A DNA stretch of 64,000 nt. Source: a virus. The DNA is taken from IMG/VR virus record IMGVR_UViG_3300043185_000079; one strand, written 5' to 3'. The notes below the pieces were generated by a model. That model saw only the letters and a list, made by a program, of their open reading frames with translations, was not told the origin of the DNA and made no database searches. A program made the translations under genes and the position numbers. Shown here one piece after another: positions 2,418-64,000 of the stretch. Within the stretch, counting starts at the first letter, position 1, and the number at the start of each line of letters is the position of its first letter.

Positions 2418-3788
2418 ATGGCCGAGGCCGACCACACAGAGCACTACTTCACCGTCCGCGGCCGGGGCTTCGACCAGAAGAGCTGGAGGACGATCCTGTC
2501 GGTCGTCCGTCAGATCGTGGATGATGCTCGCGAGAACGGTGTTGACGCGACGCTCGAGGGCGACGCTCGACGAGTCATCGTGTCCCCTTCGGGCGAAGGA
2601 ATGCCGCTCGTGATCTGGCGGACGGGCCAGCCCAACATCCCGGAATGCGTCACGGCCACGCCCCCGTTCGACGCCCTCGTCGAGAGCGTGCTCTCCGGGG
2701 TCAAGAAGATCGCCCCGGACATCTTCGAGATGACATCACCGGATGGACGGGACTACCGTCGGATTTTCGCCGACCAGGCAGCCTCGAGAAAGCAAACAGC
2801 CATGACGACCGAAGAGATCATCAGGAAGGCTGCCATCAGAGTGGCTGCCGGCACCCAGGACAAGGTGCTCAAGAGGGAGCTGCTCACCATCTTGAAGGAC
2901 TCCGTCGAGCACTGCGGGGACGAGGGGTGCGCGAGCGAAGAGAAGGAATCTCGTCACGAAGAGGGTAAGTCGGTCGACATCGGGGACTGGCTCCGCGACC
3001 ACGGGTACGAGGAAGCCGCAGACAAGTGGGAGAAGCATGAGGGCAAGATCGAGGAAATCGGCAAGTCGGCCTCCGCGGTCGTCTTTCCCGAAATCCGAGA
3101 TCTCGCGTGGCGCTACGTGCTGGAGTTCTCCGCCGCGAAGCCGACGTCGAAGCTCGCCGCCGCTTCGACCGCGACAAAAGCCGCCGCCGCGGAGCGTATG
3201 GCCAAGAAGTGGATCTCCGACGCCATCAAGCGTCCGGGTCGGGTGCACGAGTATCTCGGGATCCCCGAGGATCAGACGATCCCGATGGCGAAGCTCGACG
3301 CGGCCATCGAGAAGGTTAAGGCCACCGGCAACAAGTCGCTCCTGGCTGCTCTACAACTGGCCAAGCGCCTGAAGGGGATGAAGAAAGCGGCGGCCCCGGA
3401 CAAGGCTGCGGCGAAGTGGAAGACGATGCCCAAGGGGTGGACTGACGAGTCTCGCAAGAAGTTCTGGGAGTCGCTCACTGGTCGGTCCCCGAAGCACAAA
3501 GTCACCGCGTGCATCAAGAGGATGGAGGGCAACGTGTCGGACGCCGGAGCGTTCTGTGCTGCCCTCGCTGATCGTGTCCTCGGCACGACCGACTGGCGGG
3601 GCGAGGACCGCACGGCCCGGGCCAATCCGTTCGACAACGACCGGGTTCGGGCGAGGATCGCATCGACCAATCCGTGGATATCGTACGCGGAAATGGTCGA
3701 TCTCTGTCCCTCGTGTGCAGAACGGATGCACAACCATGGGATCACGCGGATCCACGCCAGTGTCATCCGCCGACTACTCGGCGCTTGA
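2418..3788 (+). CDS. multi-module putative virion-internal protein
   Basis: ATG 2418 follows the motif. Small modules separated by K/R-x-A (KSA, RMA, KAA, RTA, RIA); basic KKWISDAIKRPG module. Confidence 0.65.
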   Translation: MAEADHTEHYFTVRGRGFDQKSWRTILSVVRQIVDDARENGVDATLEGDARRVIVSPSGEGMPLVIWRTGQPNIPECVTATPPFDALVESVLSGVKKIAPDIFEMTSPDGRDYRRIFADQAASRKQTAMTTEEIIRKAAIRVAAGTQDKVLKRELLTILKDSVEHCGDEGCASEEKESRHEEGKSVDIGDWLRDHGYEEAADKWEKHEGKIEEIGKSASAVVFPEIRDLAWRYVLEFSAAKPTSKLAAASTATKAAAAERMAKKWISDAIKRPGRVHEYLGIPEDQTIPMAKLDAAIEKVKATGNKSLLAALQLAKRLKGMKKAAAPDKAAAKWKTMPKGWTDESRKKFWESLTGRSPKHKVTACIKRMEGNVSDAGAFCAALADRVLGTTDWRGEDRTARANPFDNDRVRARIASTNPWISYAEMVDLCPSCAERMHNHGITRIHASVIRRLLGA

Positions 3789-3804
3789 CGGGTAGCGTCC
3801 AGAC

Positions 3805-4218
3805 ATGGACGCTCCGTGGCCCAAAGGAACGCACGTGGACTACTCGGCCTTCGTGATCGAGGTCCACGTTCGCCGCAGCCATGACGGAACGATGGCTTGC
3901 CACCGGGGGCTGCAGGACGCTACGGACGTGGCAGTCACCACTTCCCTCCGATCAGGGGGGATGGAGGAGGGCGCATGGGCTCTTCTCACCGAGGCGGTCC
4001 GAACCGAGGTAATGCTCCAGCTCCTCGTGAAAATGACTAAGGACGCGGAATTTCACGAGAAAACCCTAATCGACCCGGACGCAGAGGAACAATTGAAAGT
4101 AGCTCTCGCGGAGACTACTATGGAGCTGATGGACCGCGAGTTGCGTGGGATAATCCCCGGTGTAGTCCGCGACACCATCAAGGTTCTCCGCGATGGACTC
4201 AGAACCCAAGTCGGGTAG
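3805..4218 (+). CDS. hypothetical protein
   Basis: 137 aa ORF preceded by GGGTA; the start could be GTG 3835. Confidence 0.6.
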   Translation: MDAPWPKGTHVDYSAFVIEVHVRRSHDGTMACHRGLQDATDVAVTTSLRSGGMEEGAWALLTEAVRTEVMLQLLVKMTKDAEFHEKTLIDPDAEEQLKVALAETTMELMDRELRGIIPGVVRDTIKVLRDGLRTQVG

Positions 4219-4779: not shown

Positions 4780-4805
4780 GGGGGCGGGCCCGATAGGGTC
4801 CGCCG

Positions 4806-5581: not shown

Positions 5582-6475
5582 ATGACGGAGAAGTTTGCCA
5601 GAGCCAGCGTGGAGCCTCGACGTCAGCGAACGCAGTACTCCTGCATGGCGTGCTCCATGATGATGTGCCTACGAGCGCACGGGATCGACTGCGACGAGGA
5701 CGAAGTGAACCGCACCATGGGAGCGCGTCCTATGCAGGGCGCGACTTGGGAGAGTGCCCTCGCCTGCGGCCAGCACTACGGGATGCGCTGCACCCTCGTG
5801 ACCCCCGCCACGCTCGGGCAGATCAAGAGTTGGACGGATCGCGGTGTGCCGGTGATGATCGCCTGGAATCCCGAAGGCCGCCCGTGGTCACATGCGTCGG
5901 TCATCTTCGACGTGGACGAGGACAACGTCCATGTCGCTGATCCAAATATCCCAGATCCAAGCGAGACGGTTCGGGTGGTTCCCAAAGCCGAGTTCTACAG
6001 CAAGTGGTACGAGAAGTGGCCCGACTACCTCGTGCGGCGGCCCGCGATGGCGGTCGAACGCGAGGTAACCTCCGATGGCCGGCAAGTCGTGGCGTCATCT
6101 CGACGCCAGATTTCCGCTGTGCAAATCGGCGAGGCGCTCGTGCGGGTCGGGACGACGCAAGAAGCAGTTAGGGGTGCGTACAATGATTACGTCCAGGCGG
6201 TGACGAACCTCGAGGCGGGGGCCGATCTCGTCGCCGTCGCCACCAACAGGCTCCGGGCACTCGGCTTTCCTCCCGACGAGACCACGTATCCGTTCGCCGA
6301 GAGCATCGAGGTGGTAGCGTCCGACATCTGGCGCTGGCGGAACAACATCGAGCGGATCTACGATCCAGACGATCGCCTCGCGGTGACACACAGGGTCGCA
6401 TCTCGTTTCCTTCAGGCAGAGCGGTACCCGGCGGAATGTCCAACATCGTCTTCCTCATTCGCTGGAAAGGAATGA
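5582..6475 (+). CDS. C39-like (papain-fold) cysteine peptidase with C-terminal module
   Basis: QRTQYSCMACS (Q...C), WSHASV (H), VHVADP (D); ends with HRVASRFL. Confidence 0.75.
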   Translation: MTEKFARASVEPRRQRTQYSCMACSMMMCLRAHGIDCDEDEVNRTMGARPMQGATWESALACGQHYGMRCTLVTPATLGQIKSWTDRGVPVMIAWNPEGRPWSHASVIFDVDEDNVHVADPNIPDPSETVRVVPKAEFYSKWYEKWPDYLVRRPAMAVEREVTSDGRQVVASSRRQISAVQIGEALVRVGTTQEAVRGAYNDYVQAVTNLEAGADLVAVATNRLRALGFPPDETTYPFAESIEVVASDIWRWRNNIERIYDPDDRLAVTHRVASRFLQAERYPAECPTSSSSFAGKE

Positions 6476-6534: not shown

Positions 6535-7356
6535 ATGTCAGCACAGTACGCAAATCTCGGTGGTCGCCAGTTCGTGAACGAGGACTTCGTGAGCGACGTC
6601 CGCGAGCTGTACCCGCACTCGACGAGGAAGATTCCATTCGGGTGGAGTACGTACACAGGGTGGACTGGTAAAGACGAGGTGCTCTTCACCCGGCACGACG
6701 CGGTGGAGGGCCTTGAGGGGGACACCTACGAAGTCACGTTCGATCCGGTGAACCCGGCGGCGTTCGACGAGCGAATCCTCGGCGAAATCCAGCATGTCGT
6801 AAAGAGTGCGTCAGTCCCCATGGAACGGCAGGCCCGTGTTCCGAGTGGGCTCTACGGCTATGCAAAGTCCATTCAGGCAAGCTGCGAGTCCGCCTCGCGG
6901 CGGCTCAATCGCCGCGCCACCGACCTGGTGAAGAAGGCTGTCGCGCGTGACGCCTCGGTCCTCGGTTTCCTGGAGACGCATGCGCGTCGAGGGCCGAGTC
7001 TGGCCGCGCGGGTGCTCCTGGGGGCGTATGGGAGTTCGCTTCCCCGTCCCTCAGGGACTGTGACGGCTGGTGCCGTCAGGCTCGGTATGTACGGCTATCC
7101 GGCGAAGATCGCGAGGATCGCGTTGACGGCGTGCCAGGCCCTCCGAGAGGAGGCTGGCATGCTGGCGGCGGATCTGCATGTTCGCCGCGCCGGTGTGCAT
7201 GCGAAGATCGTCGGCTTCCTGGGCGAACACTCCAAGACCGGAGGCTGCACTGCGAGCGGCCTGATCCTGTCCTGCTACCCCGAGGCCGATTTCCGGTTCC
7301 GTCGGACCGCCACGGTCACGGACTGGATCGCGTGGGACGAGTCTCCTACGACATGA
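6535..7356 (+). CDS. putative virion-internal protein with internal duplication
   Basis: AGGAG RBS; two GLYGY/GMYGY repeats; KSA, RQA and RTA motifs. Confidence 0.6.
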   Translation: MSAQYANLGGRQFVNEDFVSDVRELYPHSTRKIPFGWSTYTGWTGKDEVLFTRHDAVEGLEGDTYEVTFDPVNPAAFDERILGEIQHVVKSASVPMERQARVPSGLYGYAKSIQASCESASRRLNRRATDLVKKAVARDASVLGFLETHARRGPSLAARVLLGAYGSSLPRPSGTVTAGAVRLGMYGYPAKIARIALTACQALREEAGMLAADLHVRRAGVHAKIVGFLGEHSKTGGCTASGLILSCYPEADFRFRRTATVTDWIAWDESPTT

Positions 7357-8749
7357 GATCATCGAGCGACCCGTCGTCTCGAGCCCGACGCATGAGGGAC
7401 TTCACGCGCTTGAGCGCGCCGGTGATTCTCTCCGTCTCCTCGATCGGAATGTGGTGTTCCTCGGCGATCTCGTCCACCGTCATCTCCTTGACGTAGCGAT
7501 CGACGAGCACCTGACGGTGCCACTCGACGTCCGCTTCATCACGGATCTCGCTGCACAGGACGCGCGAGATGCAGTCCAGGACGCTTTCCAGGTCCAGGTT
7601 CGCGCTGAGCGTACTCTCTGGGTTGAGACCATCGGTAAGGTACTCGATGGGGTCCGTGTTCGAGTCGTCCTCGCTATGCTCGGTGTGTGTGTACGACAGT
7701 CTTTGCTCTGATTCGTTGATCGTTCGAGGCACGACTTCGTGCGTCCAGTTCGTCGGGTCGTAGCTGGGGATTTCCCGCGGAGTGAGGGCTCCATGGAAAA
7801 CCCGGCATACGGGCTCGCGTCCATCGTTGCGGATCTCGCTGTAGGCTCCTCGACGCGCCCAGGCACAGATCTGGGAGGGCGCGGGACCTCGTCCATCGCG
7901 GACCCGTTCTTTCAGACCGTCTCGCTGGATGATTTTCTCGATCCAGCCCATCGCGTGGTCCTCGATTTTCCCGAGAGTCTCCGAGCGCGGCATCTTGGTC
8001 CGCAGGTGCATCGTCATGCGGCCGTAGATCCGGGAGAAGTGCTCGCCCAGGTAGCGCGCCGTCTCATTGGTGCCGCACGAGAGCACGATGCGTCCCTCGT
8101 ACGTCGGACACAGTGAGCGGGCCTTCTTCACCCCGTTGGCCGTCAGCTCCCACCCGCCCCGCTGAGATCCGCTGCACAGCGGGACGACATCCCCATGGAG
8201 TCCTCGAGTCTGGACATGCCAAGCGGCTTTGACGTCGCGTCGGGCGATGTCATCCGACTGGACCCCGAGAAGGCGAGGCGCGTCGGCGACGATGTGGTCG
8301 GGCCTCACGCTGACGTAAGGCTTGAAGCCCGACATCTTCCCGATGAGGTAGACCACAGGGTCCAGGTAGCGAGTGGCGCCGATTTCGACGGGACTCTCGT
8401 CGCGGAAGTAGCCATCCCACCGAGGGTACTTCTGCTGGACCTCGCGGGCAGCCGCGACCCCGGCCTCCGTCAAGCCCCACAGACCGGGAGCAGGAGCCGA
8501 ACACAGGCCCCACAGGTCCTTCAGCCACCGCCAGGCGAAGTGGACCTCGCGGTAAAGGCCAGGCGGGCTGTTGCCATGGAGCGGCCAGTCGGGGCGTCGA
8601 GGGTCGATCCCGCGCAACGCCAGGGCCTTGTCCCGTATCGCTCTCTGGTGGATCCCCACGTCTGAGCGGAAGTCGCTCGCCGTGCCGAGGAGATAGAGGA
8701 CGGGATCGTAGAAGTCGACGCCGCGTGGGCGTTCGGAGAGGTGCGCCAT
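7346..8749 (-). CDS. sigma70-like transcription factor with two N-terminal Mrr_N-like winged-helix repeats
   Basis: GAGGA RBS before ATG 8749. Repeats DPVLYLLG...GLWGLTEAG and DPVVYLIG...GGWELTANG; region-2-like WARRGAYSEIR; region-4-like RQVLVDRYVKEMTVDEIAEEH...ALKRVK. Confidence 0.6.
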   Translation of the reverse strand: MAHLSERPRGVDFYDPVLYLLGTASDFRSDVGIHQRAIRDKALALRGIDPRRPDWPLHGNSPPGLYREVHFAWRWLKDLWGLCSAPAPGLWGLTEAGVAAAREVQQKYPRWDGYFRDESPVEIGATRYLDPVVYLIGKMSGFKPYVSVRPDHIVADAPRLLGVQSDDIARRDVKAAWHVQTRGLHGDVVPLCSGSQRGGWELTANGVKKARSLCPTYEGRIVLSCGTNETARYLGEHFSRIYGRMTMHLRTKMPRSETLGKIEDHAMGWIEKIIQRDGLKERVRDGRGPAPSQICAWARRGAYSEIRNDGREPVCRVFHGALTPREIPSYDPTNWTHEVVPRTINESEQRLSYTHTEHSEDDSNTDPIEYLTDGLNPESTLSANLDLESVLDCISRVLCSEIRDEADVEWHRQVLVDRYVKEMTVDEIAEEHHIPIEETERITGALKRVKSLMRRARDDGSLDDLMS

Positions 8750-9040
8750 GTTGTCCTCGCCTGGGCTCAAGAGCCGCAGCTAAGTGGGGTGCCGGTGTGC
8801 TCGGGTCCTGGACATGTCCTGAGACGGGCAGGTCAGTGGACGGAAGCGCGACCCTTCTACGGCGCGAGGTGTGGCCCTGTCAAGATTTCCGCAGCGATGG
8901 GCGTCAGCAGAACATTGGTGAGAGAAGTCCGTGGCTTGCGGTCCGATAGCTAAACTATTGGTGCCGAGCGGCCGGAAAGATTTTTCCTGTGGATAACTCG
9001 GGAGAGATCTCCCTTTGGTCGGACCGGGGTGCGGCCCCGT

Positions 9041-9055
9041 CGCTTATGCCTCTAT
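9041..9055 (+). promoter_or_regulatory. candidate late promoter motif CGCTTATGCCTCTAT
   Basis: Consensus match 24 nt upstream of ATG 9080. Confidence 0.65.
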
Positions 9056-9079
9056 AGGCGAGACTCAGCGGTGACCCCC

Positions 9080-10312
9080 ATGCCCGATTTTGCCGACCCG
9101 CTCGTGCGCCGCTACCTGCGAGCCGCCATCGAGCGGACCGCGCTATGGAACATGGACATGTTCGCGCGGCTGAGCGTGTTGGAGGGCGCGGCTGGTCGCA
9201 CGCCCGGTGAGTGGGTCCGCATGGGTGAGCGCGGGTTCGGGAAGGCGAAGGAGCACTTCGGGCCAGGCCTCGCCGCGGCCTGGTCGACCTCGGGGAACAC
9301 AGGGGTGTACGACGCGGCTGTCTCGTCGGCTGAGAAGACGCTCCGTAACGTGCCCGGGTTGGACGGAGCTGATCTCGTCCAGGAGATGATGGTGGGCTCC
9401 AGCAGCCCACGAGCGCCGAGCAATGGCAACGGCAAGACCGAACTCGTGGGTCCTCGAAGGCAACGGATCTTCTACTCCGTCGGCGAGACCGTCAAGAAGA
9501 TGGAGGGCGATGACAGGCTGCGATCGGGGGTCATCGGGCCCTCTCACCGCCACATCATCGCGGACATCCGACGCTGGGTACAGCGCGCGGCTCTGGATGA
9601 AATCGCGAGATGGAAGCGGCAACGCATCGTTCCGTTCAGCCCAGGGGAACCACAAGGACTGGATCCGCTCAGGACTCGAGGCGAGAGGATGACGGATGAG
9701 CAACGAGAGAACCTCGTGCTGCTCGCCCTCCGGAGTCCAGGGGGTCCCGGACGCATCGTGCAGGATGTCGTGGAGGAGTTGGTCGACCGGCGATTCCCAC
9801 CCGCGCAAGCCAAGATCGTACGGGCGTTCTTGGCGAAGATCGGCCAGGAAAAGCTGCGGTCCTCGGCCGAGATGGGGCGCCTGGTCAAGACTTTCGATCC
9901 GAACAAGTGGTGGACGCAGGCGTTCAACGTCGTTCGTCGCGAGATCATGGAAGAGATGGGCGTCTCGGCACAGCAGCTCACCAACGCGCTCGGAGGAGGA
10001 GCGAAACGCGTCTTCGACTTCATGCAGAAGGACGTGGGGCGCGACCCGAGGATCATCAAGATCGTCGAGAACCTCGGAGAGCAGATTGACCTGCTCGAGC
10101 CCGGGCTCGGCAGCAGGGTTGCTCGTTCGCGGGTGCCGGAGTCTCTCCCGGAGCACCAGCGCCCCGTGTCGCCCTTCTCGTCGTTGAGCAATTGGCTGGA
10201 GAAGGATGAGCACATGGAGTGGGGCACGCAGAGCAGTCCGCTCGCGCAGCCCTCTCGGGGCCCCGTCCCCTTGCGCGTGGCGTCTCGGTGGATTGCCGTT
10301 AAGAATCGTTGA
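9080..10312 (+). CDS. divergent sigma-factor-like protein, probably virion-associated
   Basis: ADLVQEMM...RWVQRAALDEIARWKR resembles ECF region 2; REIMEEMGVSAQQL resembles an HTH; ERTA near the N-terminus and LRVASRWI at the C-terminus. Confidence 0.45.
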   Translation: MPDFADPLVRRYLRAAIERTALWNMDMFARLSVLEGAAGRTPGEWVRMGERGFGKAKEHFGPGLAAAWSTSGNTGVYDAAVSSAEKTLRNVPGLDGADLVQEMMVGSSSPRAPSNGNGKTELVGPRRQRIFYSVGETVKKMEGDDRLRSGVIGPSHRHIIADIRRWVQRAALDEIARWKRQRIVPFSPGEPQGLDPLRTRGERMTDEQRENLVLLALRSPGGPGRIVQDVVEELVDRRFPPAQAKIVRAFLAKIGQEKLRSSAEMGRLVKTFDPNKWWTQAFNVVRREIMEEMGVSAQQLTNALGGGAKRVFDFMQKDVGRDPRIIKIVENLGEQIDLLEPGLGSRVARSRVPESLPEHQRPVSPFSSLSNWLEKDEHMEWGTQSSPLAQPSRGPVPLRVASRWIAVKNR

Positions 10313-52694: not shown

Positions 52695-52714
52695 CCGATA
52701 CCGTGGGAGAGACC

Positions 52715-54784
52715 ATGGTGCTCCCATCGATCGATCTCCCGACTCGCGAGAGTATCGGACATCCTGCGGACACCCCGGCCAGGGTCGGAATTCTCGTCCA
52801 CATGGCTCGACCCTCCAGGCGCCGCGAGTACAGCATGTCTCGGTGCATGGGGGAGGGTTGCAAGCGGTCCCCTGAGATCGAGTGCATCTGGGCCGACGGT
52901 CGTGGCCGCGCCTGGTTCTGTGAGCGACACTTCGACGCCTGGGCTGCGAAAGACACGGACGGAGGACTCCCGAAGGCTATCGTCAAGCAGCGCAGGGTTC
53001 CTGACGGTGTGGTGGGCGAAAAGTACGGCGAGTATCCCGAAGCCAAGACGGCTGCGGGGGCCCAGTTCATCGTCGTGTCCGCGAAGGGCCCTGGACAGTG
53101 GCCTACCGACCCCGTCCAAGTCATGTCCCGGGAAAGGGCCCTCGACTACCAGTCCGCGGGTGTCGTGATAGCCGGGTTTCGCACGGAGCGCGAGGCTGAG
53201 GAATTCGCAGACAAGATGCGTGACGCTGCTATCGACGTGACGGCGCCCGACGGGACGATCGTGTTCTCCGGGCGTCTCCTCGACTTCTCCGATCTGGCTC
53301 CGCGCCTCGGACTCAGGTTCGTCGACCGAGGGCGGCTTTTGCAGATCCTGCACCGTCCCACGACGGTGATCGGATCCGGCAGGCGCCAGATGACGGTCAC
53401 GCGCCGCGCGGGCAAGACCGCCAAGGCCACCGGATGCAAGACAGGCGACGGTCACAGCGTTGGGCTGTTCATCCCGCTCCCGCGAGATTTGGCCAAGAAG
53501 TTCCCTTCGCTGGGCGAGAATGACGACTCACCCTCCCATGTGACATTCCTGTACATCGGAGATTTCAAGGGAAAACGGAAGCAGGAGCGGCTCGTCGCCG
53601 TCCTACGAAGCTGCTTGCGTCGTTGGTGGCCCTCCTGTCGGGCGACACTCGGAGACTTGGCCTACTTCGATCACCACGACAAGGATCGCCGCGTGCCTCA
53701 CGTCCAGGTCGACTTCGACAAGGACATGAGTGGATTCAAGCACCGGCTGCGACAGGAACTTCACGAGGCCGGCATTGATGTTGGCGACACGTTCCCCGAG
53801 TACAAGCCCCACGTCACACTCGCTTACATGCCGGGCATGGATAGCGAGTGGGAAGGCCCTGTTCCGAAGGGGTCGTGGGACTTCGACACAGTCGAGATCT
53901 GGGGACTTCCGGAGGTCCACAAGATCAAGCTGGGGCCGTCGATTCACAAGATCTCGGAGGAGTGGGTTCTCCAAGTGATTGCTCGTCGTGTCGCGATGAA
54001 GCATTATGCTGCCGGTTGGCCGGACCGCGGCAGAGTAGCATCGGTATCCGTGAACGCGACGCACAGGCGCAACGTCACCCTCGTCAAGTGGCTATCCGAC
54101 TTGGCGCAACATCTCGGCGTCGCAAGGGACACGTACGTCGTGGGTGGGGCCGTGCGAAATTTCATCCTCGGCGAGCCCATCAAGGACGTGGATGTCGTCA
54201 TCGACACCATCAAGGCCGGCAGGGATTCTGAATGGCTGGCGCAGCAGGTGGCCAAGGCGATCCCGGTCCCGACCAACGTGACAACGAACCAGTACGGAGT
54301 GGCCATTCTCACCGTCAAGGGCGACTGGGTCCTCGACGACGAGAACCTCCGCGGCGAGATCATCGAAATCGCCAACGCGCGCAAGGAGAGCTACGGAGGC
54401 GAGACGGGCAAGGGTTATAAGCCGCACATGGTAGAGCCCGCCACCATCGAGGAGGACCTCAGGCGAAGGGATTTCACGGTTAATACGCTGATGTGGAGGT
54501 TGCTCGACTTGGCACACGGACCCGACCGGGCCGAGGTCGTCGATCTGATGGGATGTGGTCGGCGAGATCTTGAGCAGCGAATACTTCGATGCCCGCAGGA
54601 TCCAGATATCACTTTTTCGGATGATCCGACAAGGATGCTACGTCTGGTGCGGTTCATGTCCAGATACAACATGAAAGTATCTCCCGACGTAGCGGCAGCA
54701 GTGCGTCGCAACGCGCCCAAGCTCAAGAATGCTCCTTGGGAGGCCATCGCTTCGGTCCTGATGCAGACTCTGGAGGGACGGTAG
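52715..54784 (+). CDS. polyprotein: Cys module, 2H phosphoesterase and CCA-adding/poly(A) polymerase head
   Basis: 2H motifs SHVTF and PHVTL; NTase motifs VGGAVRN, KDVDV, DLRRRDFTVN and DDPTRMLR. Confidence 0.85.
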   Translation: MVLPSIDLPTRESIGHPADTPARVGILVHMARPSRRREYSMSRCMGEGCKRSPEIECIWADGRGRAWFCERHFDAWAAKDTDGGLPKAIVKQRRVPDGVVGEKYGEYPEAKTAAGAQFIVVSAKGPGQWPTDPVQVMSRERALDYQSAGVVIAGFRTEREAEEFADKMRDAAIDVTAPDGTIVFSGRLLDFSDLAPRLGLRFVDRGRLLQILHRPTTVIGSGRRQMTVTRRAGKTAKATGCKTGDGHSVGLFIPLPRDLAKKFPSLGENDDSPSHVTFLYIGDFKGKRKQERLVAVLRSCLRRWWPSCRATLGDLAYFDHHDKDRRVPHVQVDFDKDMSGFKHRLRQELHEAGIDVGDTFPEYKPHVTLAYMPGMDSEWEGPVPKGSWDFDTVEIWGLPEVHKIKLGPSIHKISEEWVLQVIARRVAMKHYAAGWPDRGRVASVSVNATHRRNVTLVKWLSDLAQHLGVARDTYVVGGAVRNFILGEPIKDVDVVIDTIKAGRDSEWLAQQVAKAIPVPTNVTTNQYGVAILTVKGDWVLDDENLRGEIIEIANARKESYGGETGKGYKPHMVEPATIEEDLRRRDFTVNTLMWRLLDLAHGPDRAEVVDLMGCGRRDLEQRILRCPQDPDITFSDDPTRMLRLVRFMSRYNMKVSPDVAAAVRRNAPKLKNAPWEAIASVLMQTLEGR

Positions 54785-54837
54785 GCGTGGCGGGCAATTT
54801 CGCGAGATTCAATGAGATGTTCGGCTGCAGAGTCTAT

Positions 54838-55276
54838 GGCTGACCCAAGGAAAGCACTCAAGGAGATGAAGGCACTGGGTCTGCTGGACGTGGTGTCTGA
54901 GATGATCCGGGAACAGAAGCCGTTCGCTACCTACATGGCCAACCAGCTCAGAGCCGACAGGCGCGTCCAGCTCCTTCTCGACATGATGGACCTTGGCGTC
55001 CCGGCCAGTATGCCCCTGTCCTTCCTCGACGCGGCCGGACGACAGCGCCTGCGCGAGCTGACCGTATCGATGTCTGAGGACGAGGCGTCGAGGCTCGTCG
55101 ATCTCCTGATTAAGCCGCCCGTGGACAGCATGCGCGTCATCACAGAGCTTGCCCTGGAGGGGCCGGCGCGGGCCGGGATCCTGCCCGCAGCCAGGCAGCT
55201 GATTCTCGCGCACCCGTGGCTGGCTAACGATTCCCGCCGGCTGACGGAGGAGGTGATCCGGCAGTGGACCAAATGA
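54838..55276 (+). CDS. probable detached C-terminal part of the CCA/poly(A) polymerase-like protein
   Basis: Same frame as the upstream gene; RKALKEMKALGLL matches the helix that follows the head/neck in this family. Confidence 0.55.
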
Positions 55277-55425
55277 TCACCCGTGTCGCCGCCCGACATG
55301 CCGTGCTCCGTTCGGCAACGGGTTACTTCCGCGAGGGCGAGGACATCCTGTTCGATCGCTACAACAAGGCCGGAAGAGGAACCGGACGATGGGCCTCTTC
55401 AACATCTGGAAGTTGTCTGAGGTGA
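55273..55425 (+). pseudogene. short RVA-motif ORF; probable frameshifted N-terminus of the 55389 protein
   Basis: ATGA-coupled start MITRVAARHAVLRSATGYF...; overlaps the 55389 frame, which is open upstream of its ATG. Confidence 0.5.
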
Positions 55426-58400
55426 GAGGCCTGCCTCCAAAAACCGGACGTGGAGTCGCGTTTCATGGTACGCGGTCGAAGAATCTCGATCACCTGCGGC
55501 GTTATGGGCTCGTGCCTGGAGCACGCAGTGCGTACACGGACGCCTATAGTAAGTACGACGACGGGCGTCATCTGTTCTTCACAGACAATGAGGACTTGGC
55601 GCGCCATTACGGAGACCTGATTCTGCGATTCCCTTGGCCAAGCGAAGCCAAGCCTGATGTTAACGAATTCGGACGCTATCTTCCTGGACAGTTCGTCTCC
55701 TTGCGGAAAATCCCGCCAGACGAGATCGATGTTTTGCGTGAGGGTACTTGGGAACCTCTCGTTGGAGGCTTGTCGAAGCAGGCCTGCATCATCGTCGGCA
55801 AGGACTTCGACGGCCACCTCTGTCTCCTCAAGAACCGGGATCGGTCGTACGACGTCAAGCTCCAGATCATGCACATGGAGTTCAACGGCGTCGAGATGGC
55901 GTTCGTACTCGATCTCGAGACCGGCTACCTGGAAGGGGTCAACGAGCACGGGATCGGCGTTGTCAACACGACGCTCATGGTGCTTCATGATGAGGCAGAA
56001 GGGCACTCGACCAAAACCAAGGGCAAGACGACGCTCAAGTCGAAGGATGGCCCGAAGATCTTCCACGCCCTCATACAGGACAATCTCCAAGACGCGGTCG
56101 ATGTTCTCGTGAGTTTCCGGGGAGGGATCCGCGGCCACACGTTCGTGGCCGACGGACAGACGCTGCTCAGTATTGAGTGCACTCGAAAGAACCCGGCCCG
56201 GGTACATCATCTCGATCCGGGGAGGGTCAACACGAGGACCAACCATGGCGTCTCATATCCCGAGGCTGGGTACACGCGCGGCGAGGACTATGTCTCGTCC
56301 ATCGTCCGTCGATGGGAGGCGCAGAAGCGGATTCAAGGGGTGAAGCGGCCAGAGGCCGCTGCTCCGGCCCTCGCAACGCTGATCGACGAGGCCGACAGCC
56401 CGTTCAATCCTGTCCGAGTGACTGACAAGATGCGGACGACGAGCCAGCTCCTCATCGATACGAGCACTCCGTCTCTCTACCTCTACCTTATTCCAGGTCA
56501 CGCGCGCGTCACCAAGATTCTCAATCTCCTTCCCGGAGGCAGAGCACCGAAGATTCCCGTCCGGGTGTTTCGCTACCGCAAGCGGATGGAAGACCGAGAC
56601 TTTGAGGACGACGGCCATGAGATGAAGGATGAAGTGGCAGATCCAGGAGGTGACTTGCTGGAGAAACGAACTGCTCGCTATAAGGACAAGAAGACGGTCA
56701 AGACCAAAGACGGCGACGAGCGAGTCATCTACGAGTACGGCCCGCGACAGGTCCTCAACCGCAACAAGGCCAAGGCGGAGCGTATCGAGAATCTGCGCAA
56801 GCAGATGTCGGCTCTCCGTCGGAAGGTCAAGAAGGACCTGGAGTCGTCCGACGACCAGAAACGCGCTGTTGCTCTCGCCGTCGCGCTGATGGACGAAACC
56901 TATGAGCGGCCCGGCAACGAAGCCAGTGCCAGCGAGGGTCACTACGGCGTGACGACGTGGCAGAACCGGCACGTCAAGTTCCGCAACGGAAAGGCCACGA
57001 TCACATACGTCGGGAAGTCTGGAGTCGAGCACAAGAAGGTCGTCGAGACACCGGCAGTCGTGAAGGCTCTCAAGATGCTCTGCAAGGGCCGAGGGAAGGA
57101 TGATCGCCTCATCGACGTCGAGGCGGCTGACGTCAACGAGTTCCTACGCTCGTTCGAGATTACGGCCAAGGACATCCGAGGGTTCCACGCGAACCGCGAG
57201 ATGAAGGACCGTCTCAAGAGGATCCGCCGTGAGGGGCCGGATCTCCCGCGGCCCCTCAAAGATCGAGACAAGATCCTGAAAGAGGAGTTCAAGCAGGCGC
57301 TGGCCGAAACCGCTGAGGCCGTAGGCCATACCGAATCCACGCTGCGCAGCCAGTACCTCGTCCCCGGGCTCGAGGACGAGTACATGAAGGACGGCACCGT
57401 CAGCGACAGCCACGTGAAGTCCGGGGGGGCGGCCCTTCTAGGCGCTCCTGGGGTCCAGGAGCGCCCAGAAGGCGCGCTGAGGGTCGCCGCCACCCGAGGC
57501 ACACCGACGGAGCGGAGGATCCTGGCGAACGCCCTGCTTGCCCCGGTGCTCGTAGTGCGCGATCGCCGCTGGTGGCTCGACGAGGCGCCGTCCCTCTACC
57601 GCCTGGCCCGTGACCACGAGCGGCCTAGACCTGTCATCGACGGTCTCCGGTTCGACCCCGACCTGTTCGCGATGCTCTGGTACGAGGACGAGGACGGGAA
57701 CAGGTTGCCCGAACCGCCCATTGGGGACCTCGCAATTCCGGAGGACTCCCATACACAGCATTCGAGGTTCCCCAACGTGCTGCGGCACACCATCCTGTTG
57801 CTTAATGACGACGGGACGTCGTCGAGCCTCGCGGCTGGGGAAAGTTCCTTTCCCTCTGATCTCGTGACGCAGATGGTTCGCAGCGGCGACTGGGACACCG
57901 CAGACGCAATCATGGTTGCCGGCCAGGCCTGCGAGCGATGCCTCAACGTCCTGCTCCACCATTACGGGATCGGGGATGGCTACCCGTTCGGGTCCGAGGA
58001 CTATTGGCGGGCGAACACAGTCTGTTCGATGTGCGAGGACATCGGCCGTCGAATGGCGACGAAGTCTCCCGCCGAGAAGGAGGATGAGAACGTCGAGAAG
58101 ATGCTACGGCCGGAACCGAAGAAGAAGCCTCCGCGCTACGACCTCCGCAACAACAGAACGCTGGAGGACCGGGACGAGGACCTGGAGGGTATGGGCGCAG
58201 GAGATCGTGGGGATCGAGACTTGAGTCTCAAGTGGAACAAGGTCGCTCATCGGGTGGCGTTCCGGTGGCTGGCCGTTCCCCTCGCGCCCGCTCCTCTGCG
58301 TGTGGCAATGCGGCGCATCGCCAGGCAGTTCCCCTCCGAGTTCCAGGACGAGGTGGCACACCAGCGGTTCACGCATCCAGAGACGCGCAACTCAGTCGGG

Positions 58401-60425
58401 TTTGGGTCGTTGCCTAGCGAGGAGCAGTCGAAGATCTACAAGCGGTGGAAAAGCAAGGCGCGGGAAGACAAGGCTCCACCAGAGGATGCCGAGAAATCCG
58501 AGAAAGGCAAGGAGGATGACGTCGAGCGTGAACTCGACGAGGCACGCGATCGGGTCGATTCTCTGGAGGATAAGGTTGATAAGGCCAAGGACCAGATCAA
58601 GGAATCGCGCGAAAACATCAAGGGGATCAAGAATCTGCTAGAGAAGGCTGGCGAGACGGCCCGAGGACAGCTCGAAGGAAAGCTGCGCGAGGAGGTCTCC
58701 AAGATGCGGAAGGCCGAGGACGCGCTGGAGGAAGTCACCGACGAATTGGAGGCGGCGCGCAAGCGTGTCGATCAGCTCAAGGCGGAGCGTAAGGCTCCCA
58801 CGAGCCGCGAAGACAAACGACGCGAGGATGAAGAGAAGCGCCGCAAGGAACGTGCCGAGGAGACTCTGGACGAGGTGCGCGATGCGGTGCGGGGGATGGT
58901 GTCGAAGGACTCCGACATCCCCGAGGACGTTCGGGCACAGATTGAGACCGCCTTCGCCAACTTGAGCGAGGAGCAAGTAGAGGATTTTTCCGAGGCATTC
59001 CAGAAGTCGTTGGGGAAGCTCGTCAGAACGGACGCTTCGTCCGAGGAGGCTGCGAACCTGGCCAACGCCTCGGTCCGCGCCGATCTGAGTGAGATTGAGG
59101 ATCCCGCAGAGCTGGCACGCACAGTTGCCGAAGTCGCGTACGCACGCAACGTGGTGACCAATCCTCTCGTCGTGGGTGGGAAGCCGCTCGGACAGACGAA
59201 GATGGACGATGCTGGCTACTCCGGTCGTGCTATGGAATCGTTCCGTCAGTTTCAGCGTCTCAGCCCTGCTCTCCGCGAGAGTGCGGCGGAAAAGATCGCG
59301 GAAGAGCTTCGCGGTCTCGACGAGGACTCCGATAAGGCACAAGAGCTACAGGCGATTCTCACAGGCATCAACACGGCTCATATCGCGGACACAGGCCACG
59401 CTTTGCCGGGTCGACCGCAGCCGAACAAAGGTGCCGCGGCTCTCATCCGTCGCATGGTGGAGAACGGTCAAGCCGAGACGATGTTCAAGCCGGTCGAGGA
59501 CTTCTTCGCCGACGACAGCCGCGCCGCGATGCAAAAGGCGCTCTCGGAAATGGACGACGCGGAGGTTGCTGACTTCGTGATCGGAGACGACGGGGATCAC
59601 CCATTCGGTAAGCTCCGCGAGGCCATGCAGGAGAAGGGCGCCAGTGAGTACAAGCAGCTCATCAAGGACTTCCTGATCCAAGATTTCATGAGTGACATCT
59701 GGGGTGATCGGGCCGTACGCGATTACATGGAGTCCGCTGGTTTCGCCGACTTCGATAATCCGGAGGCCAGGGCGCAGTTGCTTCGGGACACGAGGTACGC
59801 AACTGCACCCGAGGCAGACATGCAGGCGATCGCCAGGGCGCAGGCGGCGATCGCGGCCGGTCAGAAACCTGATCCAGAGGATGAGGAGCGTGCTCGAAAT
59901 TTCCTCGATCCAGAGACGGGGGGCGGGATCCGTGGGAAACTCCGCAAGCTCATGGAGATCTTGCAATCCAAGGTCAAGAAGCGTGTTGTCACCCCCGCGA
60001 CCGCGGTGATCAACCACTTCCTGGAGACGGGCGAGGCCGAGGTCCTCCACCAGGAGACCCTTCCACATCCTGACGAGGGCCGGGGCGGGGACACGGAGGC
60101 CAAGGAAGACGAGGGACACGGGTTGGGCGACGTGTGGAAAACTGACGAGGGGAACTGGCGCGCCAAGAATCTCGACGGAGTGCCCAAGACTTTCGATACG
60201 CGAGAGAAGGCCCAAGCATACGCCAAGGGCGGCAAGGACCGCAGGAAGCCATCGCGCGGCAGCGAGGCCCCTGGCGAGGAATTCTCGGCCGAGTTCACCG
60301 TGCCCGTCGAAGAACGAGGACCGACGAGGTTTGCCAACCATGTCGCGAACGCTTGGCTGGCCCAAGTGCGCAAATGCCACCCAGACGATCCGGGGCGTCC
60401 GCGAGTGGTTTTTGATACGGCTTGA
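55389..60425 (+). CDS. 1678-aa polyprotein: ART-like domain, Ntn-hydrolase, DNA topoisomerase IB, unknown and coiled-coil modules
   Basis: FHGT...GLVP...FFT...IPP; C-IIV...KNRD...EGVNEHG; topo IB residues ERPGN, GKSG, KDIR and GHT...QY. Confidence 0.8.
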   Translation: MGLFNIWKLSEVRGLPPKTGRGVAFHGTRSKNLDHLRRYGLVPGARSAYTDAYSKYDDGRHLFFTDNEDLARHYGDLILRFPWPSEAKPDVNEFGRYLPGQFVSLRKIPPDEIDVLREGTWEPLVGGLSKQACIIVGKDFDGHLCLLKNRDRSYDVKLQIMHMEFNGVEMAFVLDLETGYLEGVNEHGIGVVNTTLMVLHDEAEGHSTKTKGKTTLKSKDGPKIFHALIQDNLQDAVDVLVSFRGGIRGHTFVADGQTLLSIECTRKNPARVHHLDPGRVNTRTNHGVSYPEAGYTRGEDYVSSIVRRWEAQKRIQGVKRPEAAAPALATLIDEADSPFNPVRVTDKMRTTSQLLIDTSTPSLYLYLIPGHARVTKILNLLPGGRAPKIPVRVFRYRKRMEDRDFEDDGHEMKDEVADPGGDLLEKRTARYKDKKTVKTKDGDERVIYEYGPRQVLNRNKAKAERIENLRKQMSALRRKVKKDLESSDDQKRAVALAVALMDETYERPGNEASASEGHYGVTTWQNRHVKFRNGKATITYVGKSGVEHKKVVETPAVVKALKMLCKGRGKDDRLIDVEAADVNEFLRSFEITAKDIRGFHANREMKDRLKRIRREGPDLPRPLKDRDKILKEEFKQALAETAEAVGHTESTLRSQYLVPGLEDEYMKDGTVSDSHVKSGGAALLGAPGVQERPEGALRVAATRGTPTERRILANALLAPVLVVRDRRWWLDEAPSLYRLARDHERPRPVIDGLRFDPDLFAMLWYEDEDGNRLPEPPIGDLAIPEDSHTQHSRFPNVLRHTILLLNDDGTSSSLAAGESSFPSDLVTQMVRSGDWDTADAIMVAGQACERCLNVLLHHYGIGDGYPFGSEDYWRANTVCSMCEDIGRRMATKSPAEKEDENVEKMLRPEPKKKPPRYDLRNNRTLEDRDEDLEGMGAGDRGDRDLSLKWNKVAHRVAFRWLAVPLAPAPLRVAMRRIARQFPSEFQDEVAHQRFTHPETRNSVGFGSLPSEEQSKIYKRWKSKAREDKAPPEDAEKSEKGKEDDVERELDEARDRVDSLEDKVDKAKDQIKESRENIKGIKNLLEKAGETARGQLEGKLREEVSKMRKAEDALEEVTDELEAARKRVDQLKAERKAPTSREDKRREDEEKRRKERAEETLDEVRDAVRGMVSKDSDIPEDVRAQIETAFANLSEEQVEDFSEAFQKSLGKLVRTDASSEEAANLANASVRADLSEIEDPAELARTVAEVAYARNVVTNPLVVGGKPLGQTKMDDAGYSGRAMESFRQFQRLSPALRESAAEKIAEELRGLDEDSDKAQELQAILTGINTAHIADTGHALPGRPQPNKGAAALIRRMVENGQAETMFKPVEDFFADDSRAAMQKALSEMDDAEVADFVIGDDGDHPFGKLREAMQEKGASEYKQLIKDFLIQDFMSDIWGDRAVRDYMESAGFADFDNPEARAQLLRDTRYATAPEADMQAIARAQAAIAAGQKPDPEDEERARNFLDPETGGGIRGKLRKLMEILQSKVKKRVVTPATAVINHFLETGEAEVLHQETLPHPDEGRGGDTEAKEDEGHGLGDVWKTDEGNWRAKNLDGVPKTFDTREKAQAYAKGGKDRRKPSRGSEAPGEEFSAEFTVPVEERGPTRFANHVANAWLAQVRKCHPDDPGRPRVVFDTA

Positions 60426-61274: not shown

Positions 61275-61904
61275 ATGAAACGTACAGCAGACGCAGGAAA
61301 CTGGCAGGCCCGCGGACAAGAGTTCGCGGTGGGGCAAGCTGTGCGTCTCGTCAATGGCAGCCCAACCGACGAGGGTCGCGTCACCGCTGTCTGGCCTGGA
61401 ATCGGATGCGTCGATGTGCAGTGGCCACACACGTCGTATCGCCACTTGGTTGAGGATCTCCAGATTGTCAACCCGGGCGAGGACGAGTTCGTCGCGCCCA
61501 TGCACGAGGACGTGCCGGGAGGGCCCCCGTCCTCGGCGTGGGTCTCGCAAGGGGCCCCTCAGACGAACGAGATCACGCACGAGGACCCACGAGTCGAGTT
61601 CGTCCACGACATCGCGGGCAAAGTGGCATCTCAACCGTCTGCGCAGCGGGTGGCGATCGCGTTCGTGAAGCATTCTCTTTACTGGCACGCTCGGGACCGG
61701 AAGTACCGCGTCAGCCGGGACGAACACGCAGAGGGCCGGTATAGATGCCCCACCCGTGGGTGCGAACAGATGTTGCGCCGTGCAACCTACAAGATGGAGA
61801 ACGGATCTCCGATCAAGCTGCTCGCCTGCGGCTCGTGCTTGTTCATGATCCGCGAGCATGACGTACTCTCTGACCACTGCACTCCACATGAGGAGACCTG
61901 CTAG
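61275..61904 (+). CDS. putative head protein with Zn-ribbon
   Basis: KRTA, KVAS and QRVAIAF; CPTRGC...CGSC. Confidence 0.65.
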   Translation: MKRTADAGNWQARGQEFAVGQAVRLVNGSPTDEGRVTAVWPGIGCVDVQWPHTSYRHLVEDLQIVNPGEDEFVAPMHEDVPGGPPSSAWVSQGAPQTNEITHEDPRVEFVHDIAGKVASQPSAQRVAIAFVKHSLYWHARDRKYRVSRDEHAEGRYRCPTRGCEQMLRRATYKMENGSPIKLLACGSCLFMIREHDVLSDHCTPHEETC

Positions 61905-61905
61905 C

Positions 61906-64000
61906 GTGGCGTTCCTCAAGCGAGCCAGCGGGGTCGTCGTTCATCGGGGGTGGTCTCCAGAGAACTGGGGCAACTTCGTCGGCCAGAACAAGGAGCGACT
62001 CGCGAATGGGCCGTACCGAACGGCCGCCGGGGCGCTGAACTTGGTCGCGCAGGCGAGCGAGATCCTCGGCGAAGAGTTCGATCCGAAGAACTTCCTCCTG
62101 ACGCACGCGACGATCGTGGCCTCGGTCGACACGGAGGAGGCCGGGAACGTCAAGCTCGGGTCCGTCGTCGAGGACGGACGCAAGATCCTGCGCAAGTTTG
62201 GCGACTACAGGATCACGCCCGACACCGAGCAGTGGATCAACAACAACCACGACAGCTGGTCTCGCGGGGTCCTGCTCAAGAGCTACCGGACGTTCGTCGG
62301 TGCCCACAACTTCCTCGAGCACTGCCAGCTCGAGCACCTGTCGAAGGGTCGAATCGTCGACGCCGTCGCCCGCGACATCGGACCGTCGATCTACGTCGAC
62401 ATCCTCGTCGCCACCAACCGCAAGCACGCGAGCCTCATCCAGGACATCGAGAACGGCCGGATGGGCACGCTGTCCATGGGGTGCACTTGCGTGCACACGA
62501 CCTGCACGAAGTGCGGGAACGTGGGCCATGATGAGACTGAGCTTTGCTTCCCTCCCGGCACTCGTGTACTGCTTGCCGAAGGCAAGTACCGTCCCATTGA
62601 GGAGATCGTCGAAGGCGATTTCGTGCTCTCTCACACGGGTAGGCGTCGTGCTGTTGTTAGGACCATGCGCCGTGAGTACGAGGGCAACTTGGTGGTCCTC
62701 GACGTAGAGGGCGTTCCGGTCTCGGTGAAGGCAACGCCCAAGCATCCGTTTTGGACGCTGCGACCAGCACAGATCTGTGCTTGCGGCTGCGGTCAACCCC
62801 TTCGACGGACCGTCGAGCACGAACGGGGATCCGCCAAGGCATTCAAGCGTCGATTTTTGCCACACCATGCCGGCTCTCTACACAACGTAGTATCGATGGA
62901 CGCGTACCAGCGCATCTTCGATACCGAGATGGAGTTCGTCGAGGCACAGGATCTCCGTCGAGGAGATTACTTGGCCTTCCCGATTCCGCGCGACGTCGAG
63001 AACAGCGCGGATGCCACAGTCAACCGGGCTCGTTTGATCGGGTTCTTTCTGGCCGAAGGCAGTTTCATTAAGCGAGACGGCAGGAGGGTCGGCATCGCCT
63101 TTTCGTTTGGGTACCACGAGTACGACACCCTTGCGGCCGAGGTCCAGAGGCTTCTGAACCTTGAGTTTGGACGAGACGAGCGTCGGCAAGATTGTCTTGA
63201 CTGGCAGGATTTGGTTGCTCGCAATCACACGCGGGCAATCAAAAGGCGCGCCAACAGCCGCGCCGTCCCTCCAGAGGTGACGTGTCCGACATGTGCTGCG
63301 CCCTCGCAGTACGCCTACAATGCCCGTTTCAAGGCGGGGCACGACGACTGTTATCAGTGCAAGGTATGTGGGCGCTCGTGGATCCACCAAGCGGACAGAT
63401 CCCTTCACGCCACACGATACAAGTGTCCGATTGACAGACCTGAGACTGGGTCCGTCGAAGTCCGGCTCATGGACGAAGAGGCGGCGGATTTTTTCTACAG
63501 CTACTGCGGCGAATACGCGAACGAGAAGGCGCTGGATCCATCGGTCCTGCGTTGGGCTCCTGATGTCCAGAGACACGTTTTGTTCGGGTGGCTCGGAGGA
63601 GATGGGACCCAGAGTGTGGTTGGTATCCGAGGCAACACGGCTTCCTTCCATCTCCAGAATCAGATGCACATTCTCGCCGCGCGGTGCGGTCTGTATGCCT
63701 ACAGAACGGTCGTGTTCGACGGGAGATCAGGGACCATCGATCAAGTGGTGAACGGTGACGGCTCTGTCACGGCGCGAGATTGCAGAGGCTGGCTTCCGAG
63801 CTTTGGTCTCGTGCTATCTGAGCCGAAGGGGTTCAATGGCGAGGTCCGGTTTTCCGATCGGGAGCCGCGGACCACCCTCACCGAGATGACAGATAGTTAC
63901 AAGCGCGTTGGGGACTGGTTCGTCTATCGGATCCGAGATGTTGGCCGCGAGTCGTACTGCGGAACGGTCCACAATCTGGAAATCTCTGAAGACAACTCCT
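61906..64000 (+). CDS. prohead (capsid maturation) protease, intein-containing; 3'-truncated and absent from the ORF track
   Basis: AGGAG RBS and GTG. Hand translation is open to the window end: INNNHDSW...FLEH...GRIVDA...LSMGC...CTKCGN. Confidence 0.75.
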   Translation, partial: MAFLKRASGVVVHRGWSPENWGNFVGQNKERLANGPYRTAAGALNLVAQASEILGEEFDPKNFLLTHATIVASVDTEEAGNVKLGSVVEDGRKILRKFGDYRITPDTEQWINNNHDSWSRGVLLKSYRTFVGAHNFLEHCQLEHLSKGRIVDAVARDIGPSIYVDILVATNRKHASLIQDIENGRMGTLSMGCTCVHTTCTKCGNVGHDETELCFPPGTRVLLAEGKYRPIEEIVEGDFVLSHTGRRRAVVRTMRREYEGNLVVLDVEGVPVSVKATPKHPFWTLRPAQICACGCGQPLRRTVEHERGSAKAFKRRFLPHHAGSLHNVVSMDAYQRIFDTEMEFVEAQDLRRGDYLAFPIPRDVENSADATVNRARLIGFFLAEGSFIKRDGRRVGIAFSFGYHEYDTLAAEVQRLLNLEFGRDERRQDCLDWQDLVARNHTRAIKRRANSRAVPPEVTCPTCAAPSQYAYNARFKAGHDDCYQCKVCGRSWIHQADRSLHATRYKCPIDRPETGSVEVRLMDEEAADFFYSYCGEYANEKALDPSVLRWAPDVQRHVLFGWLGGDGTQSVVGIRGNTASFHLQNQMHILAARCGLYAYRTVVFDGRSGTIDQVVNGDGSVTARDCRGWLPSFGLVLSEPKGFNGEVRFSDREPRTTLTEMTDSYKRVGDWFVYRIRDVGRESYCGTVHNLEISEDNS
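62545..64000 (+). mobile_element. intein with LAGLIDADG-type endonuclease in the protease (end lies beyond the window)
   Basis: CFPPGTRV, ATPKHPF, LIGFFLAEG, FGWLGGDG and VHNLEISEDNS. Confidence 0.88.

Follow-up and report, generated by a model that had tools for sequence, protein, structure and literature searches.

A short helix tag and candidate Lys/Arg-x-Ala cleavage sites on late proteins of an uncultivated huge phage: a possible route for loading and processing head cargo

How does a huge phage choose the proteins that are built into its capsid? To our knowledge, little has been learned about this choice beyond T4 and the phages of the phiKZ group. The question is raised by a stretch of 64,000 nucleotides from the IMG/VR virus record IMGVR_UViG_3300043185_000079 (the window, meaning this whole stretch), in which a short helix, called here the helix tag, recurs on unrelated late proteins, and in which sites of the form [K/R]-x-[A/G] recur where disordered segments join folded domains. 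Our answer, read from the sequences, is that there is an even chance that these two signals together serve to load and process the cargo proteins of the head.

The window has 62% G+C, nearly every gene lies on the plus strand, and it is the head-assembly region and replication block of an uncultivated huge phage, a distant relative of Bacillus phage G. The gene order is large terminase (48024-49916), portal (50729-52672), polyprotein genes and head-maturation protease (from 61906, with the protease gene truncated by the window end), while approximately 10-39 kb is occupied by replication and nucleotide metabolism, including a ribonucleotide reductase (14707-18678), a helicase (19242-21581) and clamp-loader-like genes. 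The nearest public record is the uncultured phage LR745208.1 (485 kb, portal 67% identical); portal identity to Tunturiibacter phage Tunturi_5 (38%) and to Bacillus phage G (28%) shows that both are distant, and a nucleotide-level search of the phage collection matched nothing. Portals 58-75% identical were found on thirty IMG/VR contigs, and two relatives were taken as whole contigs, G001 (618,736 bp), which is collinear with the window, and G002 (234,244 bp).

A first-pass annotation had proposed that a short basic helix is carried by many late proteins and had quoted ten peptides, all of which are present, at the positions given for them or at most 3 nt away. Measured against the Ala/Arg-rich background, which the annotation itself had named as a possible source, the helix exceeds shuffled expectation: RVAxx[WFH] occurs 7 times in the 57 gene products of the window where 0.88 occurrences are expected (0 of 2000 shuffles reached that number), and the order-scrambled controls (AVRxx[WFH], RAVxx[WFH] and the reversed motif) stay at expectation. 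A position-specific scoring matrix (PSSM) built solely from the ten quoted sites was used for replication and gave 14 matches versus 1.9 expected in G001 and 6 versus 1.4 in G002, and after iteration the matrix gave 10 versus 0.3 in the window, 13 versus 1.5 in G001 and 5 versus 0.2 in G002. A six-frame scan at a PSSM score of at least 12 returned 10 matches in the coding frames (20,482 amino acids) and a single one in the remaining frames (102,047 amino acids), namely TRVAARHA, an out-of-frame remnant of a conserved N-terminus. Since third codon positions vary among the copies, the signal is at the protein level and is no DNA repeat; a DNA repeat or promoter as the source of the motif was ruled out by this variation together with the absence of the motif from the other five frames.

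RVAxxW did not emerge when exact four-residue patterns were counted in the window without bias, the top patterns being low-complexity repeats of D, E and S, and therefore the significance of the motif rests on the degenerate matrix, the replication in other genomes and conservation. This failure of exact patterns, together with the weakness of generic [KR]xA, is what could be said for the motif having arisen by chance or from the composition of a high-GC genome rich in Ala and Arg, an explanation we find scarcely credible, as for the helix it is refuted by the shuffles, the scrambled-order and six-frame controls, the replication in two other genomes and the conservation in hundreds of orthologues. 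The claim of the annotation is thus borne out by enrichment, replication in G001 and G002, and conservation in orthologues, and the helix is supported as a real, conserved motif that is under selection at the level of the protein and is common to unrelated proteins at termini and junctions.

The tag is 9-12 residues long, with the consensus [A/P]-[K/H/Q]-R-V-A-x-R-[W/H/F/Y]-[L/I]-[A/L]. In a helical segment, the spacing of its hydrophobic residues would bring V, A, W (or F), L and A to the same side, and it therefore suggests an amphipathic helix. It is kept in orthologues of 40-75% identity although the flank lengths vary. Among short C39-peptidase orthologues, 56 of 71 have the tag in the C-terminal 60 residues (0% in shuffled tails), with the ending ...RVAHRVARR[FHY]LE[KR]K, while the giant topoisomerase-IB proteins keep an internal ARRVAFRWLA-type tag in 18 of 26 orthologues. 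When the module encoded at 9029 is fused to further modules, the tag is retained at the junction, at about residues 380-470 of the long orthologues. A membrane-targeting amphipathic helix, as at the C-termini of MinD or FtsA, would also be short, basic, aromatic-containing and often C-terminal; nevertheless, the near-invariant R-V-A core implies specific protein recognition over lipid binding and the motif is also N-terminal and internal, so that we regard membrane targeting as very unlikely.

At least eight unrelated proteins of the window carry the tag at one of their two termini or where modules meet, including a C39 peptidase, a fusion of 2H-phosphoesterase and CCA enzyme, a giant topoisomerase-IB polyprotein, a VP2-like DNA binder and several proteins of no known type. 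The tagged features are as follows.

Positions 3195-3218, plus strand: helix variant RMAKKWIS, inside gene 2109-3788, immediately N-terminal of a fusellovirus-VP2-like DNA-binding domain.
Positions 6386-6421, plus strand: C-terminal tag THRVASRFLQAE of a C39-like cysteine peptidase (gene about 5660-6475).
Positions 10268-10303, plus strand: C-terminal tag PLRVASRWIAVK of gene 9029-10312, to which no function is assigned.
Positions 39524-39559, plus strand: N-terminal tag SKSVARQWILRH of a 100-residue protein (39491-39793), kept in L007, L031, G001 and G002.
Positions 43039-43074, plus strand: N-terminal tag PKRVAEAHLLKR of gene 43024-43887, followed by RVA↓GEV at 43072-43083 (the arrow marks a candidate cut).
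Positions 43699-43773, plus strand: KTAS (43699-43710), then C-terminal tag PQRVALDWIVAH (43738-43773) of the same gene 43024-43887.
Positions 53981-54016, plus strand: internal tag ARRVAMKHYAAG of gene 52703-54784, in the linker between the 2H-phosphoesterase and the CCA-adding/poly(A)-polymerase domains.
Positions 55279-55302, plus strand: TRVAARHA, in a 53-residue remnant open reading frame (ORF) at 55264-55425.
Positions 58245-58328, plus strand: two internal tags, AHRVAFRWLAVP and PLRVAMRRIARQ, of the giant protein, whose topoisomerase IB core lies at residues 457-651.
Positions 60333-60368, plus strand: C-terminal tag ANHVANAWLAQV of the giant protein (55389-60425).
Positions 61620-61676, plus strand: KVAS, then tag AQRVAIAFVKHS, in a zinc-ribbon protein (61275-61904) directly upstream of the protease.

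The bias towards termini is moderate, with tags at most 50 residues from an end in 10 of 13 cases in G001 (p = 0.004) and 6 of 10 in the window (p = 0.04), and the internal copies sit at module junctions (the 2H/CCA linker, the position before the VP2-like domain, and the giant protein after a charged low-complexity stretch). Relatives hold one or two tags in the linker of gene 52703-54784, and in G001 and L003 this gene is split exactly at the tagged linker. TRVAARHA corresponds to the tag with which the giant protein of relatives begins, a conserved feature seen in P0123, P0129 and P0137; relative to L024 and L005, a frameshifting deletion of approximately 70 nt parts it and a portion of a small conserved domain from the main giant ORF of the window, and the break at 55264-55425/55389 could be real decay, an assembly error or the use of an internal ATG at 55389. 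Some tags precede a small module, Y-x-P-E-F...(R/K)-F-x-(N/H)-P-x-T-G-(N/R)-x-V-x-F-x-S-L-P (58330-58440 in the window, 518895-526271 in G001), which recurs in several giant proteins; we rejected it as part of the tag as it accompanies tags only in a few cases.

Tagged genes flank the terminase, portal and protease, and the densest tagged cluster lies between these. The annotation had not noticed the helix in replication enzymes, and indeed 0 of the 10 window tags fall in the block at approximately 10.3-39.5 kb. In G001, tags are found also on dispersed, non-orthologous genes at 78, 198-200, 415, 520-526 and 600 kb, one of which encodes a 1820-residue protein containing a nucleotidyltransferase. 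This distribution bears on whether the helix is instead a linear motif for a hub outside the capsid, e.g., a sliding clamp, a transcription or replication factory, a chaperone or a phage compartment, with the enzymes recruited in the cell and left unpackaged. Many tag bearers act on nucleic acids (topoisomerase IB, CCA/nucleotidyltransferase, VP2-like DNA binder, zinc ribbon), hub-binding motifs are typically terminal, and the tagged genes of G001 are dispersed far from the head module, all of which would suit a hub. However, the replication block of the window, with its helicase, ribonucleotide reductase and clamp-loader-like genes, is free of tags, the densest tagged cluster lies among terminase, portal and protease, and both the gene at 43024 and the one directly upstream of the protease have tags beside conserved K-x-A sites. 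A hub in the cell is therefore, to our judgement, unlikely, although we would give it some weight.

The annotation had placed a protease at 61906, and the modelled gp21/assemblin fold of this gene product and its position in the head module support it as the head protease.

Positions 61906-64000, continuing past the window end, plus strand: head-maturation protease, with its true start a GTG at 61906 and the site R-T-A-A at 62017-62028.

The GTG start yields a conserved N-terminal leader (MAFLK..A), and the gene is interrupted from about 62545 by a Hint/LAGLIDADG intein, intein-free orthologues being about 480-500 residues long; the protease family has more than 1,400 metagenomic members. The gene matches the PHROG head-maturation protease (E = 1.5e-9), while Pfam and a sequence-profile search of PDB both gave no match for the protease. 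An AlphaFold2 model of an intein-free 484-residue orthologue, made with an alignment of 87 sequences (a 5-sequence alignment gave a mean predicted local distance difference test score, pLDDT, of 44), has a core pLDDT above 90 and is confident for residues 31-275 and 385-484. Its top Foldseek match is 5jbl, T4 gp21 (probability 1.0), followed by herpes proteases, and VIA-align gave Z = 10.1 for varicella-zoster virus, 9.7 for pseudorabies virus and 8.9 for gp21, the top 34 rows all being of the same fold. As modelled, the protease is thus of the T4 gp21/herpesvirus assemblin fold (clan SH). Across the 87 sequences, His57, His131, Ser138, Ser182 and His233 are invariant.

The N-terminus of the protease also has a candidate cut site. 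The annotation had marked RTAA here, and this site is conserved in relatives: [VI]-R-T-A-[S/A] is near-invariant in 120 orthologues despite surrounding insertions, R-T-A is followed by S or A in 73 of the 83 sequences compared, RVAS replaces RTAS in 4 of 84 N-termini, and in the model the site lies where the disordered N-terminus joins the folded core. A second K-[Q/E]-[A/G] comes after an acidic linker, ahead of the C-terminal helical domain. More broadly, the protease, the leader of the portal, a scaffold-like protein and part of the cargo proteins have [K/R]-x-[A/G] followed by S, A or G (or Cys) where a disordered segment passes into a folded one. Of the claim that K/R-x-A motifs mark domain borders, it is this stricter form at linker-to-domain boundaries that has support; the generic pattern is too loose.

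The strict form is also distributed unevenly, with [KR]xA[SG] occurring 36 times versus 21.4 expected in the flanks of the window and 6 versus 12.9 in the middle block. Two further features of the window carry candidate sites.

Positions 42381-42956, plus strand: a 191-residue protein with four [KR]xA[S] sites (KTAS, RSAS, RAAS, RAAS).
Positions 50993-51004, plus strand: KVAA, immediately ahead of a Gly-rich linker in the leader with which the portal begins (gene 50729-52672).

The first of these is the densest in sites of the window (4 versus 0.4 expected, p = 8e-4). When all proteins are ranked by [KR]xA[SG] density, an acidic protein encoded right after the protease tops both G001 (9 versus 0.8, p = 2e-7, among 587 proteins) and G002 (12 versus 1.5, p = 8e-8, among 204), with two of its sites kept in position between the two genomes, and it carries no helix tags. 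The order in G001 is protease, acidic scaffold-like protein, a 219-residue protein and major head protein. In the portal leader, F-R-A-[KR]-V-A-[A/S], seven of eight distinct full-length relatives have [KR]VA[AS] and the eighth has KTAA, so that of the two portal sites marked earlier KVAA is conserved in relatives and RTAS is not.

Sites also occur beside tags. In the 43024 family, all 15 aligned relatives have a site of the type K-T-A↓G-E-V (14 relatives being listed with T, L or M as the middle residue), which the window has as RVA↓GEV, and the KTAS of the same gene comes after an acidic linker, 12 residues before the tag, the order of K-x-A-S/R and then helix being kept in relatives; Pfam gave no match for this protein and the protein atlas gave no lead. 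In the 61275 protein, 6 residues separate KVAS from the tag, and most of 10 relatives have [KR]-[TVS]-A followed by RVAxA[FYHW][VI]K. Gene 2109-3788 has KSAS 44 residues upstream of RMAKKWIS (KVAS...RLAKKWIQ in the G001 orthologue), and in gene 52703-54784 RVAS lies 15 residues past ARRVAMKHYAAG.

One may also ask whether tag and site are one code, with the helix being an extended recognition and cleavage site of the protease, R-V-A↓x-R-W-L, or an exosite motif for substrate docking. R-V-A obeys the P3-P1 rule, RVAS stands for RTAS in those four protease N-termini and RVAG for KTAG in the window copy of 43024, the portal site is [KR]VAA, and several tags read RVAS. Unlike the protease site, with S or A in 73 of 83 sequences, the tags mostly have a residue other than S, A or G after R-V-A (R 7, S 4, then E, M, N, H, A, T and others), and it is on this basis that tag and site are argued to be distinct; additionally, position +5 of a tag has to be aromatic and position +6 aliphatic, demands that do not apply to the sites, and the scaffold-like protein, the richest in sites, carries no tags. 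We consider a single code quite unlikely. Since R-V-A does appear as a variant of the site, cutting inside the tag is conceivable, and in a bolder version RVAxRW[LI] would be a position-independent capsid address with its own release switch, which would dock cargo to the interior of the procapsid and be cut also at R-V-A within the helix, so that the cargo is freed, polyprotein modules come apart and enzymes are activated, e.g., through exposure of the Cys of a putative N-terminal nucleophile hydrolase; this version is in our opinion improbable.

The reading with separate signals, which we prefer, would work as follows. The helix tag would let proteins dock to the scaffold, the capsid interior or the portal and would thereby recruit them into the procapsid during assembly. 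The protease of the gp21/assemblin fold would next cut after [K/R]-x-A, which would dismantle the scaffold, trim the portal and the protease itself, part some polyprotein modules and possibly expose the Cys of an N-terminal nucleophile (Ntn) hydrolase. The enzymes would then ride in the head and enter the host along with the DNA.

The polyprotein part of this scheme concerns three genes after the portal, which encode the 2H and CCA enzyme (52703-54784), a 154-residue module (54812-55276) and the 1678-residue topoisomerase-IB protein (55389-60425). The annotation had described a modular polyprotein system, and the relatives agree with this, as these genes are fused, split and module-swapped differently among them: they form one ORF of 2808 residues in L018 and two to four ORFs elsewhere, with two in L001, L005 and G003 and a scattered arrangement in G002, and their orthologues swap in other enzyme modules (NUDIX, GGACT/AIG2, AAT). 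One junction in the giant protein bears on the proposed exposure of the Ntn Cys.

Positions 55776-55787, plus strand: K-Q-A↓C junction, preceding a putative Cys-Ntn-hydrolase module (AAT/CBAH-like) in the 1678-residue protein (55389-60425).

[KR]-x-[A/G] stands before the putative Ntn Cys in 12 of 12 orthologues where this Cys was found (KQA, KTA, REA, RTA, KDA, KVG, KLG).

Several results weigh against the separate-signal reading and are the reason for our restraint. Generic [KR]xA is barely enriched (301 versus 259 expected in the window; z = 1.4 in G001) and we rejected it as a signal, being weakly enriched and too degenerate; in the giant protein, its conservation is no better than that of [KR]xK or [KR]xG. 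A general rule of tag and then cut, which the earlier proposal implied, has to be given up: a search 40 residues into the body finds a canonical site for 5 of 18 terminal tags, which exceeds the 9% expected, while the outer side has none, and 13 of 18 have no canonical site between tag and body, so this minority counts against the reading, and most tags may remain on the mature protein or be cut in some other way. The acidic site-rich protein after the protease looks like a scaffold by position and composition, and Pfam found nothing for it. The assignment of the Ntn module is weak (Pfam AAT, E = 0.013; AAT on one orthologue; atlas AAT/CBAH scores of 0.86-0.88), and a PDB sequence search with this module returned nothing. 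Ntn hydrolases usually process themselves. Finally, the window-derived PSSM has no match in phage G (NC_023719.1, 1-45000, L082), phage G and Tunturi_5 are without the tag within the 45-50 kb examined, and the search of cultured phages with the 43024 and C39 peptidase proteins found only the uncultured record LR745208.1 and thus no tag-bearing cultured phage.

Phage G has a different shared leader. Near its portal, approximately 11 of 55 annotated proteins begin with a segment of the type M-K-R-L-I-K-K-A-S, with examples such as MKRLIKKAS, MKKSRLKKVS, MSKKISRLKKTA, MKKFSRLQKKAA and MKRLISKTAARY, and this leader, ending in K-x-A/S, may be an N-terminal address and cut site of that lineage. The multi-omics paper on phage G names gp19 as the head protease and reports neither a cleavage motif nor a leader, and our literature search found no paper on a Lys-x-Ala rule for a phage head protease.

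A few neighbouring genes should be mentioned. The sole clearly minus-strand gene of the window (7346-8770) encodes 474 residues with a match to sigma-70 region 4 and may specify a sigma factor of the phage. A VWA/CobT-like protein (84-1820) and a clamp-loader fragment resembling DNA polymerase III delta' (12988-13587) are interspersed with tagged genes towards the left end. The ribonucleotide reductase at 14707-18678 has 1323 residues, its PHROG matches are split, and its length would allow an insertion. In G001, a 292-residue major head protein ORF is followed by three LAGLIDADG/HNH homing-endonuclease-like ORFs (244915-249040, L047); its capsid gene region is invaded by mobile elements.

A defined tag of 9-12 residues together with a simple cut rule would make cargo selection testable in a widespread uncultivated clade. 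If the reading is correct, the tag would predict the injected proteome from sequence, with topoisomerase IB, the RNA-repair pair of 2H-phosphoesterase and CCA-adding enzyme, and the C39 peptidase as members, and it would offer a means to bring foreign proteins into capsids of large size. The maturation proteases of phages and herpesviruses are linked by structure, and a phage protease of the Ala↓Ser type would make them parallel in function as well. If, furthermore, the address carries its own switch, this would be a programmable loading and activation system that delivers sets of enzymes (topoisomerase IB, RNA repair, peptidases) into the host.

Among known systems, the capsid-targeting sequence (CTS) of T4, found on IPI-III and Alt and processed by gp21, is alike in being a short peptide common to unrelated proteins, with a head protease of the same fold and a scaffold riddled with sites, and its cargo enzymes are likewise presumed to be delivered along with the DNA. 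However, the CTS of T4 occurs at the N-terminus only and has the cut site L/I-x-E as its end, whereas the tag described here, RVAxRW[LI], is N-terminal, C-terminal or internal, and T4 cuts after Glu, while the predicted cut here is after [K/R]-x-Ala with the tag mostly apart from canonical sites; an extreme N-terminal leader ending in a protease site is not what we found, as tag positions vary and 5 of 18 have a site. The phiKZ/SPN3US giant phages have many head-internal ejection proteins, multi-site propeptides at the N-termini of head proteins and protease autoprocessing (PMC10052503); they differ in cutting at S/A/G-x-E by gp175/gp245, in that no shared helix tag has been described for them, and in belonging to an unrelated nucleus-forming clade.

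Encapsulin cargo-loading peptides are similar in being one short terminal peptide on unrelated enzymes, which it directs into an HK97-fold shell, although an encapsulin involves neither a protease step nor DNA, its peptide has another sequence, and binding of the present tag to a shell is conjectural. The HK97 protease has a C-terminal capsid-targeting tail, likewise a terminal targeting segment on a head protease. Systems of the MuF/SPP1 gp7 type, whose post-portal head proteins have variable enzyme or toxin domains, also place a variable multi-enzyme gene directly after the portal, but Pfam finds no MuF (Phage_Mu_F) domain in 52703-54784, 54812-55276 or 55389-60425 and the tag is on many genes, so the likeness is one of post-portal position only.

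Herpes assemblins cut after Ala, at x-Q-A↓S/T (YLQA↓T, VQA↓S), and the cut at the M-site severs the C-terminal tail by which the scaffold binds the major capsid protein, so that the scaffold is freed from it (PMC4498786). The protease fold is the same (Z up to 10.1), the cut predicted here would also fall between Ala and Ser, and the order of site and then C-terminal segment is seen in 43024, 61275 and their orthologues, being absent upstream of the C-terminal tags of the C39 peptidase, the 9029 product and the giant protein. By analogy, the M-site is the nearest mechanistic precedent for the site-then-tail arrangement of 43024 and 61275, with the difference that the herpesvirus tail is on the scaffold and protease only, whereas here many unrelated enzymes are tagged, also at their N-termini, and P3 is Lys or Arg. 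What would set the present system apart from all of these is the sequence of the tag, its placement at either end or internally, the predicted Ala-type cut with Lys or Arg at P3, and the clade in which it is found.

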